From Meiothermus cerbereus (GTDB lineage: Bacteria; Deinococcota; Deinococci; Deinococcales; Thermaceae): a stretch of DNA of 64,000 nt. The translations under genes were made by a program, and so were the position numbers. Of the stretch, positions 15,120 to 44,685 are shown piece after piece. The notes beneath the pieces are model-generated. The model was not told the DNA's origin, did not search any database, and saw nothing but the letters and a program-made list of their open reading frames with translations. The first letter of the stretch is position 1. Every line of letters starts with the position of its first letter. The stretch covers positions 107 to 64,106 of the forward strand of contig NZ_JBEVAL010000010.1 in assembly GCF_051297115.1 (NCBI RefSeq), written 5' to 3'.

Positions 15120-16259
15120 CTACAGGAAATCCCCCAGAATACGCTCAACCTGGTCGGTCTCAATCAGAAAGGCATCGTGGCCATGCGGGCTGTGAATCTC
15201 GCGGTACATGGCGCCGCTCAAAGCAGCCATTTCACGAACCTCCTGGGCGGTGTACAGCACGTCGGTGTTGATGCCGACAAACAAGCTGGGGATGCCCTTT
15301 AGGCGGTTTAGTGCGGCCTCGAGGCCTCCGCGCCCACGGCCCACATCGTGGGTATCCATGGCCTCCGAGAGGGTAAGGTAGGCGTTGGCGTCGAAGCGTT
15401 TGGCAAATTTTTCTCCCTGGTACAGCACATAACTCTCGCCCCGCTCAGGGTGCTGTTGCCAGCGCAGGCGGAAGGAGTCGGGTGAGCGGAAGGAAAGCAT
15501 CGCGATGGCCCGGCCCAGTTGAAGCCCCAGGGGCTGTTCGGTGTAGTAGCCACCCCGATAGCCGGGGTCGGCCAGCACCGCTTCGCGCGAGAGTCGGTTA
15601 AAAGCCCGGGCCCAGGGGCTATGCACTGCGGGTGCGGCCAGCACCACCATCTTATGCACCCGGTGTGGGTACAGCAGGGCGAACTCCAGCGCTACCATCC
15701 CGCCCAGGCTGCCCCCCAGCAAGGTCACCTTTTCGATGCCCAGGAAGTCCAGGAGCTTGGCCTGGGCTCGAGCCAGGTCACGCACGGTGAGCTTGGGAAA
15801 TTCCGGCCCATAGGGCCGGCCTGTGGCCGGGTTGAGCGAAAGGGGGCCGGTAGAGCCATAGCAACTGCCAATGTGGTTGGCACAAATGACAAAATACTTC
15901 TCCGTATCCAGCATCCGGCCCGGCCCGGCCAGCGCGTCCCACCAGCCGTCCGGCCCGAAGGCCTGGTCGAGCCTGGGCAGGCTGCTGAGGGTTTCTTTGC
16001 TATAGGTTCCGGCCAGGTGTGCAGAGCCCGTCCAGGCGTGGAAAACCAGCACCGCGTTGCTGCGCTCGAGGTTGAGCTGACCATAGGTTTCGTAGCGCAT
16101 GCGCAGCTCGGGCAAGGTACCGCCGTACTCGAGGTGAAACCCACCCGCTACCAGGGCCTGGGCCGGTACCGGAGGCGGTACCCGGCCCCGGCTCTTGGGG
16201 GGCTTGATGAGCAGGGCCTCGTGATCGCCCCAGGCCTCTTGAATCAGCAGATCGGTCAT
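15120..16259 (-). CDS. metX: Homoserine O-acetyltransferase
   Basis: Alpha/beta-hydrolase fold with GGSLGG nucleophile elbow. 379 aa, immediately downstream of metY. Confidence 0.9.
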   Translation of the reverse strand: MTDLLIQEAWGDHEALLIKPPKSRGRVPPPVPAQALVAGGFHLEYGGTLPELRMRYETYGQLNLERSNAVLVFHAWTGSAHLAGTYSKETLSSLPRLDQAFGPDGWWDALAGPGRMLDTEKYFVICANHIGSCYGSTGPLSLNPATGRPYGPEFPKLTVRDLARAQAKLLDFLGIEKVTLLGGSLGGMVALEFALLYPHRVHKMVVLAAPAVHSPWARAFNRLSREAVLADPGYRGGYYTEQPLGLQLGRAIAMLSFRSPDSFRLRWQQHPERGESYVLYQGEKFAKRFDANAYLTLSEAMDTHDVGRGRGGLEAALNRLKGIPSLFVGINTDVLYTAQEVREMAALSGAMYREIHSPHGHDAFLIETDQVERILGDFL

Positions 16260-16306: not shown

Positions 16307-17608
<1,302 letters not shown>

Positions 17609-17610
17609 CT

Positions 17611-17733
17611 ACCGTCTATCCCGAAAGGGATCGTCCGCTTGGTGAACATCCGCTTTAGCGGTCTGTCCCAAAGGGGATCGTCCGCCCGGTGAACAGCCGC
17701 GCCAGCGGTCTGTCCCAAAGGGGATCGTCCGCG
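17611..17733. repeat. Tandem 46-47 bp double-hairpin repeats, cluster A (about 2.6 units)
   Basis: Units ggtgaacaNccgcNNNagcggtctgtcccaaaggggatcgtccgcNN start at 17641 and 17688, with a partial unit at 17611-17640. The cluster lies in the metY 5' UTR. Confidence 0.85.
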
Positions 17734-17772
17734 TGGGATTTGGGGCGCTGTTGGTAGGAGTTTTGCTATAGC

Positions 17773-17812
17773 AAAACCCCCTACCAGACGTTCTTTTATG
17801 GCTGGAAGGGGG
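17773..17812 (-). terminator. Riboswitch expression-platform terminator
   Basis: Minus strand has cccccttccag ... ctggtaggggg followed by TTTT. The 5' arm can alternatively pair with the P1 3' strand (gagaaggg), forming an antiterminator. Confidence 0.75.
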
Positions 17813-17830
17813 TACGGCTTGCGCATTCCC

Positions 17831-18010
17831 TTCTCTTATCTTTCCCAACCGCCAAGCTATGCCTAGCTTCGAACGTCGTGTGCCTACAACGTTCAGCGGA
17901 TGGGCCGGAATTAGCACCGTGCAAAAAGCTTTCTGGTAATGAGCAGAAGCTTTTTGTGGGTTGCTGCGACTTCACAGGGCCGAATCCCTCCGTCGCTCTC
18001 GATAAAAGAA
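17831..18010 (-). promoter_or_regulatory. SAM-I (S-box) riboswitch aptamer controlling metY-metX
   Basis: Minus strand reads TTCTTTTATC-GAGAGCGACGGAGGGATTCGGCCCTGTGAAGTCGCAGCAACCC, a long P3 hairpin, GGTGCTAATTCC, P4, then AAAGATAAGAGAA. All the core S-box motifs I recognise are present in canonical order. Confidence 0.85.
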
Positions 18011-18048
18011 CTTTTGATTGTGGCCGCGCCCCAGCGCGGATAAAAGTG

Positions 18049-18077
18049 AGTGTAGTTAGAAGGTATGGTTATGTCAA
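18049..18077 (-). promoter_or_regulatory. Promoter of the SAM riboswitch-metYX transcript
   Basis: Minus strand has TTGACA (18072-18077), a 17-nt spacer, and TACACT (18049-18054), about 40 nt upstream of P1. Confidence 0.65.
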
Positions 18078-18090
18078 GCCCAGTGCAAAC

Positions 18091-18250
18091 CAGGCCCAGA
18101 GGGAATCATCCTGCTGGTGAACAGCGGCTTCAGCCGTCTGTCCCGAAGGGGATCGTCCACCGGTGAACAGCCGCGCCAGCGGTCTGTCCCGAAGGGGATC
18201 GTCCGCCCGGTGAACAGCCGCGCCAGCAGTCTGTCCCAACAGGGGCCAAC
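18091..18250. repeat. Tandem 46-47 bp double-hairpin repeats, cluster B (2 good units plus degenerate flanks)
   Basis: Units start at 18116, 18162 and 18209 (the last degenerate), with a degenerate partial unit at 18091-18115. The cluster lies between the gcvP stop and the riboswitch promoter. Confidence 0.85.
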
Positions 18251-18296
18251 TGGCACCGCTCAGCCAGGCCGCCACGGCAAGCGCCCTGGACGCCGA

Positions 18297-21188
<2,892 letters not shown>

Positions 21189-21261: not shown

Positions 21262-21398
21262 CTGTCCTTTTGCCTGAGAGTGTTATCCCGTCGGCGGGCG
21301 GTGTTCGCCTCTCTCCAGATTGCACTGCTGTGGTCCTTTTGCCTGAGAGTTTCCGGGGTGGTTGCTCCTTCGGCGTGGGGCTGGCCCATCTCTCCCAT
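21262..21398 (-). promoter_or_regulatory. Tandem glycine riboswitch (two aptamers)
   Basis: Minus-strand aptamer 1 is GGGAGAG...ACGCCGAAGGAGCAA...CTCTCAGGCAAAAGGACC. Aptamer 2 is CTGGAGAG...CGCCGACGGGATAA...CTCTCAGGCAAAAGGACAG. Confidence 0.9.
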
Positions 21399-21422
21399 CA
21401 GCAGCCTGCTGCATGTACCTCG

Positions 21423-34303: not shown

Positions 34304-34912
34304 GTGGATAGGAAAAACTTGCAAGCCGTGCTGCGTATGTACGCCCAGGGGTACTTTCCCCTGGGAATGGAGCACGGCATTGGCTGGTTCGATCAGCGGG
34401 CCTATGGCACGCCCTACCGCGCCCTAATGCCCCTCGACGAGCGCTTTCACATTCCGCGCAGCCTGCGCCGGGTGCTGAACAGCAGGCGTTTTGAAGTGCA
34501 TATCAACCGCAATTTTGCTGGGGTTCTGCAAGGCTGTGCGACTCGAGGCGGGTCGTATTCAAGTGAAACCTGGCTCACCCCAGAGGTAGCCCAGCTATAC
34601 CTGAGCCTTCACCAGTACGGGTTTGCCCACAGCTTTGAGGCCTGGCACCAGGGCAGGCTGGCAGGTGGCATTCTGGGTGTAGCGCTGGGGGCAGCCTTTA
34701 TTGGCGACAGCATGTTCTATAGCGTTCCCGATGCCTCCAAGGTGGCCCTGGTGCAGCTGGTGGAACACCTGCGGGTACGGGGTTTTGAAATTTTTGATGT
34801 GCAGGTGCAAAACCCCCACCTGGCCAGATTCGGGGCCATAGAGGTAGACCCCCTCGAGTTTCGCCAGCAGCTTTTTCAGGCCATCCAGAAACCGGCCCGG
34901 TTTGTAGACTAA
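34304..34912 (+). CDS. aat: Leucyl/phenylalanyl-tRNA-protein transferase
   Basis: YAQGYFP, ...PRSLRRVLN.. and GESMFS-like (GDSMFY) motifs of L/F-transferase. Confidence 0.85.
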   Translation: MDRKNLQAVLRMYAQGYFPLGMEHGIGWFDQRAYGTPYRALMPLDERFHIPRSLRRVLNSRRFEVHINRNFAGVLQGCATRGGSYSSETWLTPEVAQLYLSLHQYGFAHSFEAWHQGRLAGGILGVALGAAFIGDSMFYSVPDASKVALVQLVEHLRVRGFEIFDVQVQNPHLARFGAIEVDPLEFRQQLFQAIQKPARFVD

Positions 34913-35025
34913 GTGTCTCCATAAGCGAAATGCGAGATGCCGTACCGGAAGTTCGCTTTAGGAATTGCGCCAGGTATGCATTGACTCATTCCGCTGGTTT
35001 TGCCAATCTGCCCTGGCGCAACTTA
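34911..35025 (+). repeat. 115-bp structured dispersed repeat, copy 2
   Basis: 112/115 identical to 2672-2786. It begins inside the aat TAA stop codon. Confidence 0.85.
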
Positions 35026-36406: not shown

Positions 36407-37207
36407 TTACACCGAAATACCGCACCAAAGCTCATAATCTTGCAGTGTAGTTACACTAGGGTGTTCGCCACACACCCCGCAGTCCGGGCGGCGGGGAAAA
36501 CCAAGGCGGTGGAAGCGCGCCTGCAAGCCGTCGTACAGCAGAAGCTGGCCGGACAGCACCTCCCCCAGCCCCAGCAGCACCTTGAGCGCCTCGGTGGCCA
36601 TCAGGCTGCCAATCACACCGGGAAGCACCCCAAACACCCCGGCTTCCGCACAGTTGGGAACCGTTCCAGGCCTGGGCGGCTGGGGAAACAAACAGCGGTA
36701 ACAGGGTCCTCCCTGGTAATGAAAAACCGAGAGCTGGCCCTCAAACTGGTGAATGGCCCCGTAAACCAGCGGTTTATCCAGCAAAACACAGGCGTCGTTG
36801 ATCAGGTAGCGGGTAGGAAAGTTGTCGGTGCAGTCGATGATGAGATCGTAGGGCTCCAGCAGCCCTAAGGCGTTTTCAGCGGTAATGCGCTGGGCATAGG
36901 CTTCTACCCGGAGGTGGGGGTTAAGGCTTTCCAGCCGACTTTTAGCTATCTCGGCCTTGCGCTGTCCGATGGATGCGGTATCGAACAGTACCTGCCGCTG
37001 CAGGTTGGAGAGGTCTACCCTATCCATTTCTACCAGGCCCAGGCGGCCCACCCCCGCTGCGGCCAGGTACATGAGCACCGGCGAGCCCAGGCCCCCTGCG
37101 CCCACCACCAGCACGGAGCTTTGCTTGAGCCTGGCCTGGCCTGCGCCACCCACCCCTGGCAGCACAATGTGGCGGGCGTAACGGTCCAGCTCCTCTTTGG
37201 TCCACAT
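36407..37207 (-). CDS. moeB: MoeB/ThiF/TtuC-type E1-like adenylyltransferase
   Basis: RYARHIVLPGVGGAGQARL, the VVGAGGLGSP nucleotide loop and two CxxC pairs (CYRC, CGVC). No rhodanese domain. Confidence 0.85.
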   Translation of the reverse strand: MWTKEELDRYARHIVLPGVGGAGQARLKQSSVLVVGAGGLGSPVLMYLAAAGVGRLGLVEMDRVDLSNLQRQVLFDTASIGQRKAEIAKSRLESLNPHLRVEAYAQRITAENALGLLEPYDLIIDCTDNFPTRYLINDACVLLDKPLVYGAIHQFEGQLSVFHYQGGPCYRCLFPQPPRPGTVPNCAEAGVFGVLPGVIGSLMATEALKVLLGLGEVLSGQLLLYDGLQARFHRLGFPRRPDCGVCGEHPSVTTLQDYELWCGISV

Positions 37208-37240
37208 ACCAGCACTATAGCAACCCTGCGCCTGAAGCGT

Positions 37241-37633
37241 TCAGTCTTCCTCGAGCCAGACCAGCACCTCTTCCCCTTGCGGTAGCCAAAAAGCCCGCAG
37301 GTGTTCTGTGCGCATATCGAAGATTACGTAAGGGACACGCCAGAAGGCCTGGGCGCGGTCAGTTTCACTGGGCTGCGCGGGCCCATTGGGGTGGGAGTGA
37401 AAAATTGCCACGAGCTCGAGGCCCGCCCGTTCGCTATACCGAACTGCTTCGATGAGGGACTGGGGTTCTGCCTGGTAGCGTTCCCAGGGTCGGGCGTGAA
37501 CGTTATGCAAGGGCCAGACCTCAGAGACCCGCCTTGCCCGGCCCAGCCATAGCCCCACCCCTTCGTGGGGCATGGCCGCCCGCAGGTGGGAAAGGGTTTG
37601 CTCGAGGCATGTCCTGGGCAGGCGCACAATCAT
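37241..37633 (-). CDS. JAMM/MPN+ family metalloprotease (Mov34/Mec+-like)
   Basis: PHEGVG glutamate plus HSHPNGPAQPSETD (the HxHx7Sx2D JAMM motif). 130 aa. Confidence 0.82.
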   Translation of the reverse strand: MIVRLPRTCLEQTLSHLRAAMPHEGVGLWLGRARRVSEVWPLHNVHARPWERYQAEPQSLIEAVRYSERAGLELVAIFHSHPNGPAQPSETDRAQAFWRVPYVIFDMRTEHLRAFWLPQGEEVLVWLEED

Positions 37634-43068: not shown

Positions 43069-44382
43069 GTGGGCCTGCCTTCGCTAAACGATGTGATTGC
43101 CGCCATCGCCACCCCGCCCGGCAAGGGCGCGGTGGGGATTGTGCGGGTCTCGGGCAACGGCGCTCTAGAACTGGTCTCTAGGCTCTGGCAGGGCAAAAAT
43201 CCCTACAGACTGGCCGGCGGGCGCTTCACCTACGGTAAAATCTGCGACCCGAACACCCAGGAAGTGCTGGACGAGGCGCTGTTGCTGGTTTTCCGCAGGC
43301 CCCATTCCTACACCGGCCAGGACAGCGCCGAGCTGCACACCCACGGCTCGCCTGCGGTGTTGCGCCGGGTTTTGCAGGCGCTGTTTGAGCTAGGGGCCCG
43401 CCCGGCCCAGCCCGGTGAGTTCACGCTGCGGGCCTACCTGAACGGAAAAATGGACCTGGCCCAGGCCGAGGCGGTGCTGAGCTTGGTAGAGGCCGAGTCG
43501 GACGCCGCCCGGCGTCAGGCCTTGCGGGGCCTGAGCGCGGGGTTGTCGCAGAAGATCGCGCACCTCTCCGAGCAATTGTTCGACCTGCTGGCGCACATCC
43601 AGGCCTGGCTGGACTACCCCGAAGAAGGGGTCGAACCCGCCCAGATTCAGGAAACCCTCGAGCCCGTTTTGCAGGAAATCGGCCACCTGCTGGCCACCGC
43701 CCCCGCCGGGCGCATCGCCCAGAAAGGGGCCCGGATTGCCCTGGTGGGGGCCCCCAATGCCGGCAAGTCCAGCCTGCTCAATGCGCTCTTGGGCTACGAG
43801 CGGGCCATCGTTACCCCCATCCCGGGCACCACCCGCGACTACCTGGAAGCCCCTATGGAGATTGCCGGGGTGCCCATTGTGGCCGTGGACACCGCCGGAG
43901 TCCGGGAAACCCACGACCCAATCGAGAAAAGCGGGGTGGAACGGGCCTTACAGATCGCACAGGAAGCCGACCTGGTGCTCTACCTGGCCGACCAGAGCCA
44001 GCCCCACCCCACCCCGCCACCGCTGCCCTGGGAGCGCACCCTGAAGGTAGCCACCAAGGCCGACCTGGCCCCCGCCTGGACAGCGGATTCGTACCTGCGG
44101 GTCTCGAGCCAGACCGGCCTGGGCCTGCACGAGCTACGCCAGCAAATCCACCAGCGGCTTCTGGGCCAGGCCCCCGAGGGGGAGCTTTGGGTCAGCAACG
44201 AGCGGCATGTGGAGGCCCTGCGCCGGGCCCAAACCCACCTGCACGAAGCCCTGCAAGCCCCCCAGGACCTGGCCGCCCTCTCGATCGAGATGGCCCTGGA
44301 CGCGCTGGCCGAAATCCTGGGCAAAGACGTTTCGGAAGAGGTGATTGACCGAGTATTCCGTAACTTTTGCGTGGGCAAGTGA
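43069..44382 (+). CDS. mnmE: tRNA modification GTPase MnmE
   Basis: IAAIATPPGKGAVGIVRVSG, G-domain GAPNAGKSS and the C-terminal FCVGK motif. Confidence 0.93.
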   Translation: MGLPSLNDVIAAIATPPGKGAVGIVRVSGNGALELVSRLWQGKNPYRLAGGRFTYGKICDPNTQEVLDEALLLVFRRPHSYTGQDSAELHTHGSPAVLRRVLQALFELGARPAQPGEFTLRAYLNGKMDLAQAEAVLSLVEAESDAARRQALRGLSAGLSQKIAHLSEQLFDLLAHIQAWLDYPEEGVEPAQIQETLEPVLQEIGHLLATAPAGRIAQKGARIALVGAPNAGKSSLLNALLGYERAIVTPIPGTTRDYLEAPMEIAGVPIVAVDTAGVRETHDPIEKSGVERALQIAQEADLVLYLADQSQPHPTPPPLPWERTLKVATKADLAPAWTADSYLRVSSQTGLGLHELRQQIHQRLLGQAPEGELWVSNERHVEALRRAQTHLHEALQAPQDLAALSIEMALDALAEILGKDVSEEVIDRVFRNFCVGK

Positions 44383-44454
44383 AAAGTCGAAGGCAAAAAG
44401 CCAAGCACCCCTCGAGCTTTGTCCTTGAACTTCCCACCCTGATGGCGCGCATTC

Positions 44455-44685
44455 GTTGAAAAGCGGCTTCTGTCGTCTGTCCCGAGGGTAATCGTCCCCT
44501 GGGTGAACAGCGGCGCCAGCCGTCTGTCCCGAAGGGGATCGTCCCTGGGTGAACAGCGGCGCCAGCCGTCTGTCCCGAAGGGGATCGTCCGCTTGGTGAA
44601 CAGCCGCTTTAGCGGTCTGTCCCGAAGGGGATCGTCCCTAGGTGAACAGGCTGGTCGGGGCTATGTCCCAAAAGACCGTCCCCTG
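44455..44685. repeat. Tandem 46-47 bp double-hairpin repeats, cluster C (5 units)
   Basis: Unit starts are 44455, 44502, 44548, 44595 and 44641; the outer units are degenerate. Same orientation as clusters A and B. Confidence 0.88.

Follow-up and report, generated by a model that had tools for sequence, protein, structure and literature searches.

The leader of metY in the 64,000-nucleotide stretch of Meiothermus cerbereus DNA analyzed here (hereafter, the window) carries a tandem array of hairpin repeats, array A, which is most plausibly (probability of about 0.68) an insertion that is confined to one clade and tolerated there, derived from a new REP/MIRU-like repeat family and lodged as a passenger in the loop of a native helix that involves the Shine-Dalgarno sequence (SD). 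The family is a previously undescribed small interspersed hairpin repeat of Meiothermus and Allomeiothermus: it is dispersed over distinct insertion sites, is absent from the same leader in sister lineages, is polymorphic in copy number, and is built on a hairpin that covaries. The insertion appears to be nearly neutral, and the position of the array inside a riboswitch expression platform is unusual and probably inconsequential. The original prediction on this DNA had left two outcomes open, a tolerated insertion hotspot or an added layer of control; the former is borne out by the empty sites of sister lineages, the copy-number differences, the presence of other inserts in the same loop, and the existence of a dispersed family with mixed orientation.

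Organization of the metY leader

Read on the minus strand and numbered by window positions, the leader comprises the elements listed below; promoter, SAM-I aptamer, terminator, palindrome, repeats, AGGAG, and ATG are all present in the order originally predicted, with small corrections.

18297, minus strand: stop codon at the 3' end of gcvP (Pfam GDC-P)
18078..18256, minus strand: array B, with three scoring units (18247-18112) and a degenerate unit touching the -35 box (TRF 18116-18245; covariance model)
18049..18077, minus strand: metY promoter-like site TTGACA-17-TACACT, sigma-70-like (sequence scan)
17831..18010, minus strand: SAM-I (S-box) aptamer (RF00162 and direct reading of the P1 strands)
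17773..17812, minus strand: putative terminator hairpin (direct reading; RNA fold of -17.9 kcal/mol)
17761..17776, minus strand: perfect 16-nt palindrome TTTTGCTATAGCAAAA, overlapping the T-tract by 4 nt (direct reading)
17753..17760, minus strand: anti-SD CTCCTACC, which pairs with GGUAGGAG in the folds
17731..17752, minus strand: 22 unique nt of the native anti-SD/SD loop, aacagcgccccaaatcccacgc
17684..17730, minus strand: array A, unit 1 (47 nt; covariance model 72.5 bits, E ~7e-19)
17637..17683, minus strand: array A, unit 2 (47 nt; covariance model 66.5 bits)
17614..17636, minus strand: array A, terminal half unit, the first hairpin module alone (core motif with 2 mismatches)
17606..17613, minus strand: GGTAGGAG, containing the SD and serving as 3' strand of the anti-SD:SD helix (unchanged or covarying in relatives)
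16307..17599, minus strand: metY, O-acetylhomoserine sulfhydrylase (translation; homologues are O-acetylhomoserine (thiol)-lyases, PF01053)
15120..16259, downstream of metY: metX (Abhydrolase_1 match)

The promoter-like site is the only one between 17500 and 18350, where 0.1 would be expected from shuffles, and its TTGACA and TACACT-like boxes are kept in the relatives. The assignment of the aptamer to SAM-I relies on the Rfam RF00162 match at 17883-18008(-), whose 51.8 bits exceed the gathering score of 44.4, and on a P1 helix that closes a four-way junction and shares its 3' strand with the antiterminator. Specifically, P1 pairs UUCUUUUAUC (18010-18001) with GAUAAGAGAA (17840-17831) and is kept in 13/13 leaders. 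The Rfam SAM alignment puts the P1 3' strand at GAACGUUGUAGG, with non-canonical pairs, whereas the true strand GAUAAGAGAA lies about 45 nt beyond, past a conserved P4-side region that adds an extra hairpin; the misplacement is due to a large P4-side insert. Since the P1 strands are kept at 18010-18001 and 17840-17831 in all relatives, 17831-18010 is a better aptamer boundary than that of Rfam, as had been correctly proposed, and automated annotation would truncate the metY SAM-I aptamer.

In the putative terminator, the 5' arm CCCCCTTCCAG (17812-17802) pairs with the 3' arm CTGGTAGGGGG (17787-17777), which is followed by TTTT (17776-17773), resulting in an 11-bp stem with one mismatch and a U4 tract; stem and T-tract are kept in every relative, with a covarying change from C-G to U-A in L136. 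A strict terminator scan of the leader did not flag this hairpin, because its loop measures 14 nt and only four T follow the stem. The 5' arm can alternatively pair, through its CCCUUC, with the complementary GAAGGG (17833-17828) as an antiterminator. At the other end of the leader, AGGAG (17610-17606) lies inside the native GGTAGGAG, followed by the metY ATG at 17599, and in repeat-free relatives the conserved stretch 'gccccaaatcc..cgc' directly precedes GGTAGGAG. The closest MetY matches come from Meiothermus sp. MAGs. Further upstream, ahead of gcvP, a glycine riboswitch aptamer (RF00504, 63.4 bits) is found at 21322-21407(-), detected as a single aptamer and not as the usual tandem pair.

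The repeat unit and its arrays in the window

The unit is 46-47 nt long and consists of two hairpins, and units are always joined head to tail. Its 5' module is conserved (GGACGATCCCCTTCGGGAC, a small CCC/GGG hairpin). Next comes a second hairpin, rich in G+C and variable, with the layout ACAG-A-SSSS-loop-SSSS-CTGT (8 bp and a bulge), and then TTCACC and a linker of 3-4 nt. In an alignment of 62 distinct units, which was fitted to the covariance model and whose counts lean towards structure, pairing in the second hairpin reaches 98%, and both sides are changed in 34 cells, a result reached by 0/500 shuffles; at alignment columns 24/33, 15 units have C-G, 11 have G-C, and none is unpaired. The second hairpin is under structural constraint, and RNA folding predicts it to be still stable at 60-70 C.

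Besides arrays A and B, the latter situated between the gcvP stop (18297) and the metY promoter, the window contains a third array:

44451..44681, minus strand: array C, with four scoring units and one degenerate unit (TRF 44474-44669; covariance model)

Array C lies between mnmE (43069-44382, plus strand) and the next plus-strand gene and is antisense to both, so that the metY mRNA carries the orientation opposite to the one transcribed at the mnmE cluster, as had been noted from the outset. The TRF periods of the three arrays are 46-47 nt; for array A, TRF reports 17614-17732 with a period of 47, 2.5 copies, and a score of 175. Nine copies of the 23-nt core GGACGATCCCCTTCGGGACAGAC, all of them on the minus strand, are present in the window, versus none in 100 shuffles, and the unit covariance model gives E-values of ~1e-17 to 1e-19; with filters off, its search of the whole window returned arrays A, B, and C and nothing else. 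Taken as a whole, array A has a weakly unusual stability (z = -1.9 vs shuffles).

The core alternates with a more variable segment of 23-24 nt, a layout that superficially resembles repeats and spacers and that could identify the arrays as degenerate CRISPR-like arrays or as binding sites for a protein such as a nucleoid protein or a regulator. This origin is highly improbable: the arrays hold 1-6 units at many loci, some of which lie inside genes, and no Rfam family matches the repeats in an E-value scan of 17550-18300. A CRISPR array in the proper sense, with identical repeats and unique spacers, was rejected, since what would be the spacers is conserved sequence that forms, along with part of the core, a covarying hairpin. 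Separately, a second and unrelated intergenic repeat of ~115 nt has two copies, at 2672-2786 and 34911-35025, with 97% identity; it is less G+C-rich than the surroundings, it is predicted to be structured (z = -3.65 vs shuffles), and it is possibly a MITE or a small RNA.

Orthologous leaders and history of the insertion

A check of orthologous leaders for presence or absence of the repeats and for their copy number, proposed along with the original prediction, was run on 13 distinct metY leaders, namely that of the window (to which L081 is identical) and those of its relatives. Eight of them are empty, four are occupied (1, 2.5, 3.4, and 3.5 units), and one carries a different insert; all 13 keep the promoter, the aptamer, the terminator, CTCC(T/G/A)(A/G)CC, and GGT(A/T)GGAG. 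In the eight distinct empty leaders (L128, L129-L132, L133-L135, L136, L143, L144, L140 from Calidithermus, and L002), cgc or ACGC is joined directly to GGT(A/T)GGAG or GGTAGGAG. Aligned with these empty sites, the array A insert corresponds to 17614-17730, 117 nt in length (47+47+23), and is placed exactly between ...CCCACGC and GGTAGGAG, with the flanking CGC and GGT being native. The repeats had been assigned to 17611-17733 with 2.6 units, the last of which was thought to adjoin the SD: their presence holds and their extent is reduced to 2.5 units, and the array does abut the native GGTAGGAG, but the GGT before AGGAG belongs to the leader and not to the repeat.

The occupied leaders are those of the window (2.5 units), L113 (3.5 units, also ending in a half unit like the terminal one of array A), L082 (three units and a degenerate partial one, 3.4 in total), and L001 (one degenerate unit, 41 bits vs ~72). 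The remaining leader, L141, harbors an unrelated 25-nt insert, ggcagctccctgcaccgggagcaaa, at exactly the repeat insertion point; it resembles a relic half unit and receives no score from the unit covariance model. Other inserts in the anti-SD/SD loop are likewise unrelated and lineage-specific, being found in L128 (~1130-1165), L129 and L133 (~1120-1165), and L143 (~690-770) in addition to L141 (~750-775), and several of them form hairpins, such as tcgctggcctgggccagcga in L128.

The window, L113, L082, and L001 form one clade in neighbor-joining trees of both metY DNA and protein, with the repeat-free leaders as sisters. This clade spans ~13% metY nucleotide divergence, which makes the insertion clade-old and not strain-recent. 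A recent insertion had been considered, since the MetY proteins of repeat-free relatives are 95% identical, but it was discarded because nucleotide identity is ~85% and the occupied leaders form a clade. The simplest history would be a single insertion in the ancestor of this small clade, followed by copy-number change, which would occur most simply via slippage or unequal recombination, and by decay in L001. L113 has one unit more than the window even though the two share 99.5% identity in the leader and 96% in metY.

All four sampled members of the clade keep units, and in three of them the units are near the family consensus. Near-consensus, retained units fit turnover or homogenization, but they also fit selection, under which the repeats would be a selected part of the metY leader, acting as a structured spacer, an mRNA stabilizer or standby-site modulator, or a VNTR-type rheostat in which the number of units would determine how strong or how leaky metY translation is. 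This functional reading is unlikely: retention in 4/4 clade members and the stability of the unit hairpin at 60-70 C argue for it, but sister lineages have the same riboswitch architecture without the array, the single unit of L001 is decayed, and unrelated inserts occupy the same loop in other lineages.

The surroundings of the leader have been rearranged. Relative to gcvP, the metYX block has opposite orientations in the window (18078-18297) and in L001 (5709-6862): L001 has gcvP downstream of metYX, on the other strand, which places array B at an inversion breakpoint. In nearly every lineage a different gene lies upstream of metY (gcvP, a small divergent gene, TPR/GGDEF, ribD, aconitase, and others). 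Arrays A and B have the same orientation, are ~380 bp apart, and share units that are 83-87% identical; as direct repeats, they might recombine to delete the riboswitch and fuse metY to gcvP read-through, or promote local rearrangement more generally, and repeats flank the cassette in L082 (6070-6200) too, despite a different upstream neighbor. That the arrays owe their significance to such recombination is nevertheless very unlikely, given that no contig with the predicted deletion was seen, that L001 has no upstream array, that the far end of the inverted block is free of units in the window, and that the association may reflect intergenic DNA that accepts both repeats and breakpoints.

The anti-SD:SD helix and the predicted switch

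The repeats lie in the loop of a helix that belongs to the native leader. CUCCUACC has two complementary partners, the SD strand GGUAGGAG and the terminator 3' arm GGUAGGGG, and in the minimum-energy and centroid folds of the platform CUCCUACC is paired with GGUAGGAG while the repeats are folded inside the loop. In 11 distinct leaders, 8/8 pairs of this anti-SD:SD helix are always paired; one pair varies among U-A, A-U, and G-U, with changes on both sides, and another between A-U and G-U. The covariation is modest, a score as high being obtained in 15/500 shuffles, because the function of the SD fixes most positions. The length of the loop enclosed by the helix ranges from 20 to 185 nt across leaders. 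Furthermore, a hairpin formed by CUGGUAGGGGG...CUCCUACC, with the palindrome as its apical part, folds at -20.4 kcal/mol and is seen in antiterminator-forced folds.

In the proposed mechanism, SAM binding would lead to the formation of P1 and of the terminator, and in the transcripts that read through, the free anti-SD would sequester the SD. In the absence of SAM, the antiterminator would release GGUAGGGGG, the 3' arm of the terminator, which resembles the SD strand, and this freed arm would capture the anti-SD via the palindrome hairpin, so that the SD would open. The native leader would accordingly be a dual platform, with SD sequestration as the backup of termination. Each repeat unit is expected to fold on itself, and array A would therefore only enlarge the already length-variable loop of the native anti-SD:SD helix.

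Constrained folding, with the P1 3' strand blocked as a proxy for the SAM-bound state and with the repeats deleted in silico as a comparison, gave the following predicted probabilities that the SD is unpaired.

P1 strand blocked, 37 C: 0.005 with repeats; 0.004 with repeats deleted
Antiterminator forced, 37 C: 0.76 with repeats; 0.34 with repeats deleted
Antiterminator forced, 60 C: 0.75 with repeats; 0.56 with repeats deleted (a trend similar to that at 37 C)

The switch is thus predicted to survive with the repeats in place, and the second control layer is probably the native helix and not the repeats. The proposal that the repeats themselves add a second layer of translational or stability control is not supported, since the native anti-SD:SD helix is also present in repeat-free relatives and the folds keep the switch. 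The higher accessibility of the SD in the ON state (0.76 vs 0.34) could nonetheless be a real quantitative effect, and this predicted rise is among the points in favor of the repeats as a selected part of the leader.

Dispersal of the family across genomes and plasmids

The core motif was sought in one exact-motif scan of metagenomes, for which contig taxonomy is inferred and gene calls in the loci are heuristic, and it matches 46 metagenome (hot-spring) contigs that represent ~20 distinct insertion sites. Arrays hold 1-6 units, and all the units of an array are on one strand (47 sources). Variant units are carried by the Allomeiothermus silvanus plasmids pMESIL01 and pMESIL02 and by a Meiothermus taiwanensis plasmid. 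Copy number differs between contigs, with 0, 1, 2.5, 3.4, or 3.5 units at metY, 2 to 4 at mnmE, 1 or 2 at ychF, and 2 or 3 at two other loci.

The genes that adjoin the arrays are ordinary housekeeping genes, and the orientation of the arrays relative to them is mixed, with no evident bias among ~16 intergenic sites (heuristic GC3 gene calls): arrays are antisense downstream of mnmE and at three other sites, and some lie between convergent genes. This mixed orientation makes an RNA-strand-dependent role less likely and, together with the units found in frame inside CDSs, weighs against a selected function in the metY leader. In favor of such a function, arrays abut SD and ATG in the sense orientation at at least two other loci, which could reflect function rather than target preference. 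At these loci, namely the ychF-like GTPase locus (L083/L086/L112/L126) and L085 2337-2524, the arrays end 9-20 nt before the SD and ATG. The 3' flank of the arrays mostly starts with GG(G), a possible target preference. A more elaborate scenario, quite doubtful on the present evidence, would have the family land preferentially 5' of GG-rich SD-like sequences, with metY copy number serving as a mutable spacer that retunes ON-level translation, and with A/B recombination able to excise the cassette; if true, it would represent a VNTR rheostat or switch inside a dual SAM-I riboswitch, driven by a mobile element without a recognizable transposase.

Some units also lie in frame within genes. A precise 42-nt insertion occurs in an ISMesi2-type IS701 transposase, where the A. 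silvanus protein WP_013156564.1, which lacks it, has GQALIP directly followed by CDFRVYDKP and the metagenomic proteins read GQALIP[LVYRRQSVPKGIVL]CDFRVYDKP, the extra 42 nt being the repeat unit. This insertion is found at L111 5958-6695(-), L107 9459-10340(-), and ~15 other metagenome loci, in a multi-copy transposase; the empty reference is L145 (A. silvanus pMESIL01, 36589-37620 in the record). Transposase homologues within the motif-selected loci were uninformative, because all of them had been selected by the motif, and the plasmid copy resolved the question. The 38 unit nucleotides are the same in two transposase subfamilies whose proteins share only ~58% identity. Judged against the empty A. 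silvanus copy, the precise 42-nt insertion is evidence of family mobility. In addition, two 48-nt units extend an ORF at L106 343-438, where VDDPLRDRRPPAAVHQ is apparently translated twice, one unit lies in an agmatine-deiminase-like ORF (L102 3646-3693), and an array is contained in an annotated secretin CDS (L138 1517-1640, pMESIL02). Another unit is apparently in frame within an ORF at L122 3791-3837, and one of these apparently in-frame units translates to RPSVPKGIDH. Intragenic units measure 42 or 48 nt, both divisible by three, vs 46-47 nt for intergenic ones.

As regards the means of dispersal, no transposase, terminal inverted repeats, or target-site duplication was found for the family. 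At metY and in the ISMesi2 transposase, filled sites set against empty ones revealed no inverted termini and no unambiguous duplication, with an ambiguous GG only.

Implications

A tolerated selfish repeat is the most likely explanation of array A, and current understanding is not overturned by it. For mobile-DNA biology, the family inserts precisely, lacks inverted termini, target duplications, and a linked transposase, and grows head to tail. For riboswitch biology, the orthologous leaders are a natural experiment in which one platform holds 0, 1, 2.5, or 3.5 structured inserts in its sequestering loop, a series that allows a test of how much strand separation an SD-sequestering helix tolerates before control fails. 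For annotation, the arrays can pass for CRISPRs and extend spurious ORFs, the units add 14-16 residues to real proteins, and metagenome assemblies break at the arrays. L081 ends inside array B and L113 also breaks within an array; since the metagenome contigs of the metY locus start or stop inside arrays, the family fragments short-read assemblies.

Comparison with known systems

Searches of the literature on Meiothermus and Thermus repeats, REP, and RAYT returned no description of the family, and the REP surveys did not include Meiothermus. The closest parallels are shared among several classes of repeats. Like the REP/BIME elements of Enterobacteria and Pseudomonas, the Meiothermus units have a short, G+C-rich covarying hairpin beside a conserved unpaired motif and occur in many copies that are mainly extragenic, often clustered, and transcribed within mRNAs; the second hairpin has the form expected of a REP, an imperfect palindrome of 20-40 nt with compensatory changes. 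Unlike REPs, the Meiothermus units are 46-47 nt long with two hairpins and occupy 5' leaders, promoter regions, and in-frame positions within genes. Orientation alternates within BIME clusters, whereas the Meiothermus arrays are strictly head to tail, an arrangement that is rare among REP dimers in a published survey (PMC3733652). REPs also have a GTAG or CGTC tetranucleotide directly flanking the palindrome (PMC3733652). Beside the Meiothermus palindrome there is no GTAG, and the CGTC of the complementary strand (GATCGTCC) is 12 nt away, across the first hairpin. REPs are mobilized by RAYT transposases, none of which was identified here among the genes adjoining the arrays. Membership in the MITEs is not indicated either, as neither terminal inverted repeats nor an unambiguous target-site duplication is present at the metY or ISMesi2 sites.

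The MIRU and other VNTR-type repeats share with the Meiothermus family a unit of ~50 bp, direct tandem arrays, dispersed intergenic loci, and a strain-polymorphic copy number, and as dispersed direct tandem arrays with copy-number polymorphism the Meiothermus repeats are of the VNTR type. MIRUs lie within operons in sense orientation and contain small coupled ORFs; the Meiothermus arrays differ in having mixed orientation and a covarying hairpin as their defining feature. The BOX elements of Streptococcus pneumoniae (boxA-boxB(n)-boxC) likewise repeat a hairpin module of ~45 nt a variable number of times; they are found in untranslated regions beside genes and can alter expression. Unlike BOX, the Meiothermus arrays have no terminal boxA or boxC and end in degenerate or truncated units. 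Lastly, the in-frame units of 42 and 48 nt, in the transposase, the secretin-annotated CDS, and others, recall the Rickettsia palindromic elements (RPEs), small palindromic repeats that insert in frame into genes. RPEs are ~100-150 nt long, form no tandem arrays, and have no sequence similarity to the Meiothermus units.

With respect to the host platform, an interspersed repeat array inside an SD-sequestering loop was not described in the literature searched. The SAM-I riboswitch of Xanthomonas campestris is a precedent for an expression platform of the translational or dual type that acts by SD sequestration (PMC7270179). The metY leader resembles it in coupling the aptamer to a predicted sequestration of the SD and adds a putative terminator, with a putative relay, read here from sequence and folding, that would run from the terminator 3' arm to the anti-SD and from the anti-SD to the SD.
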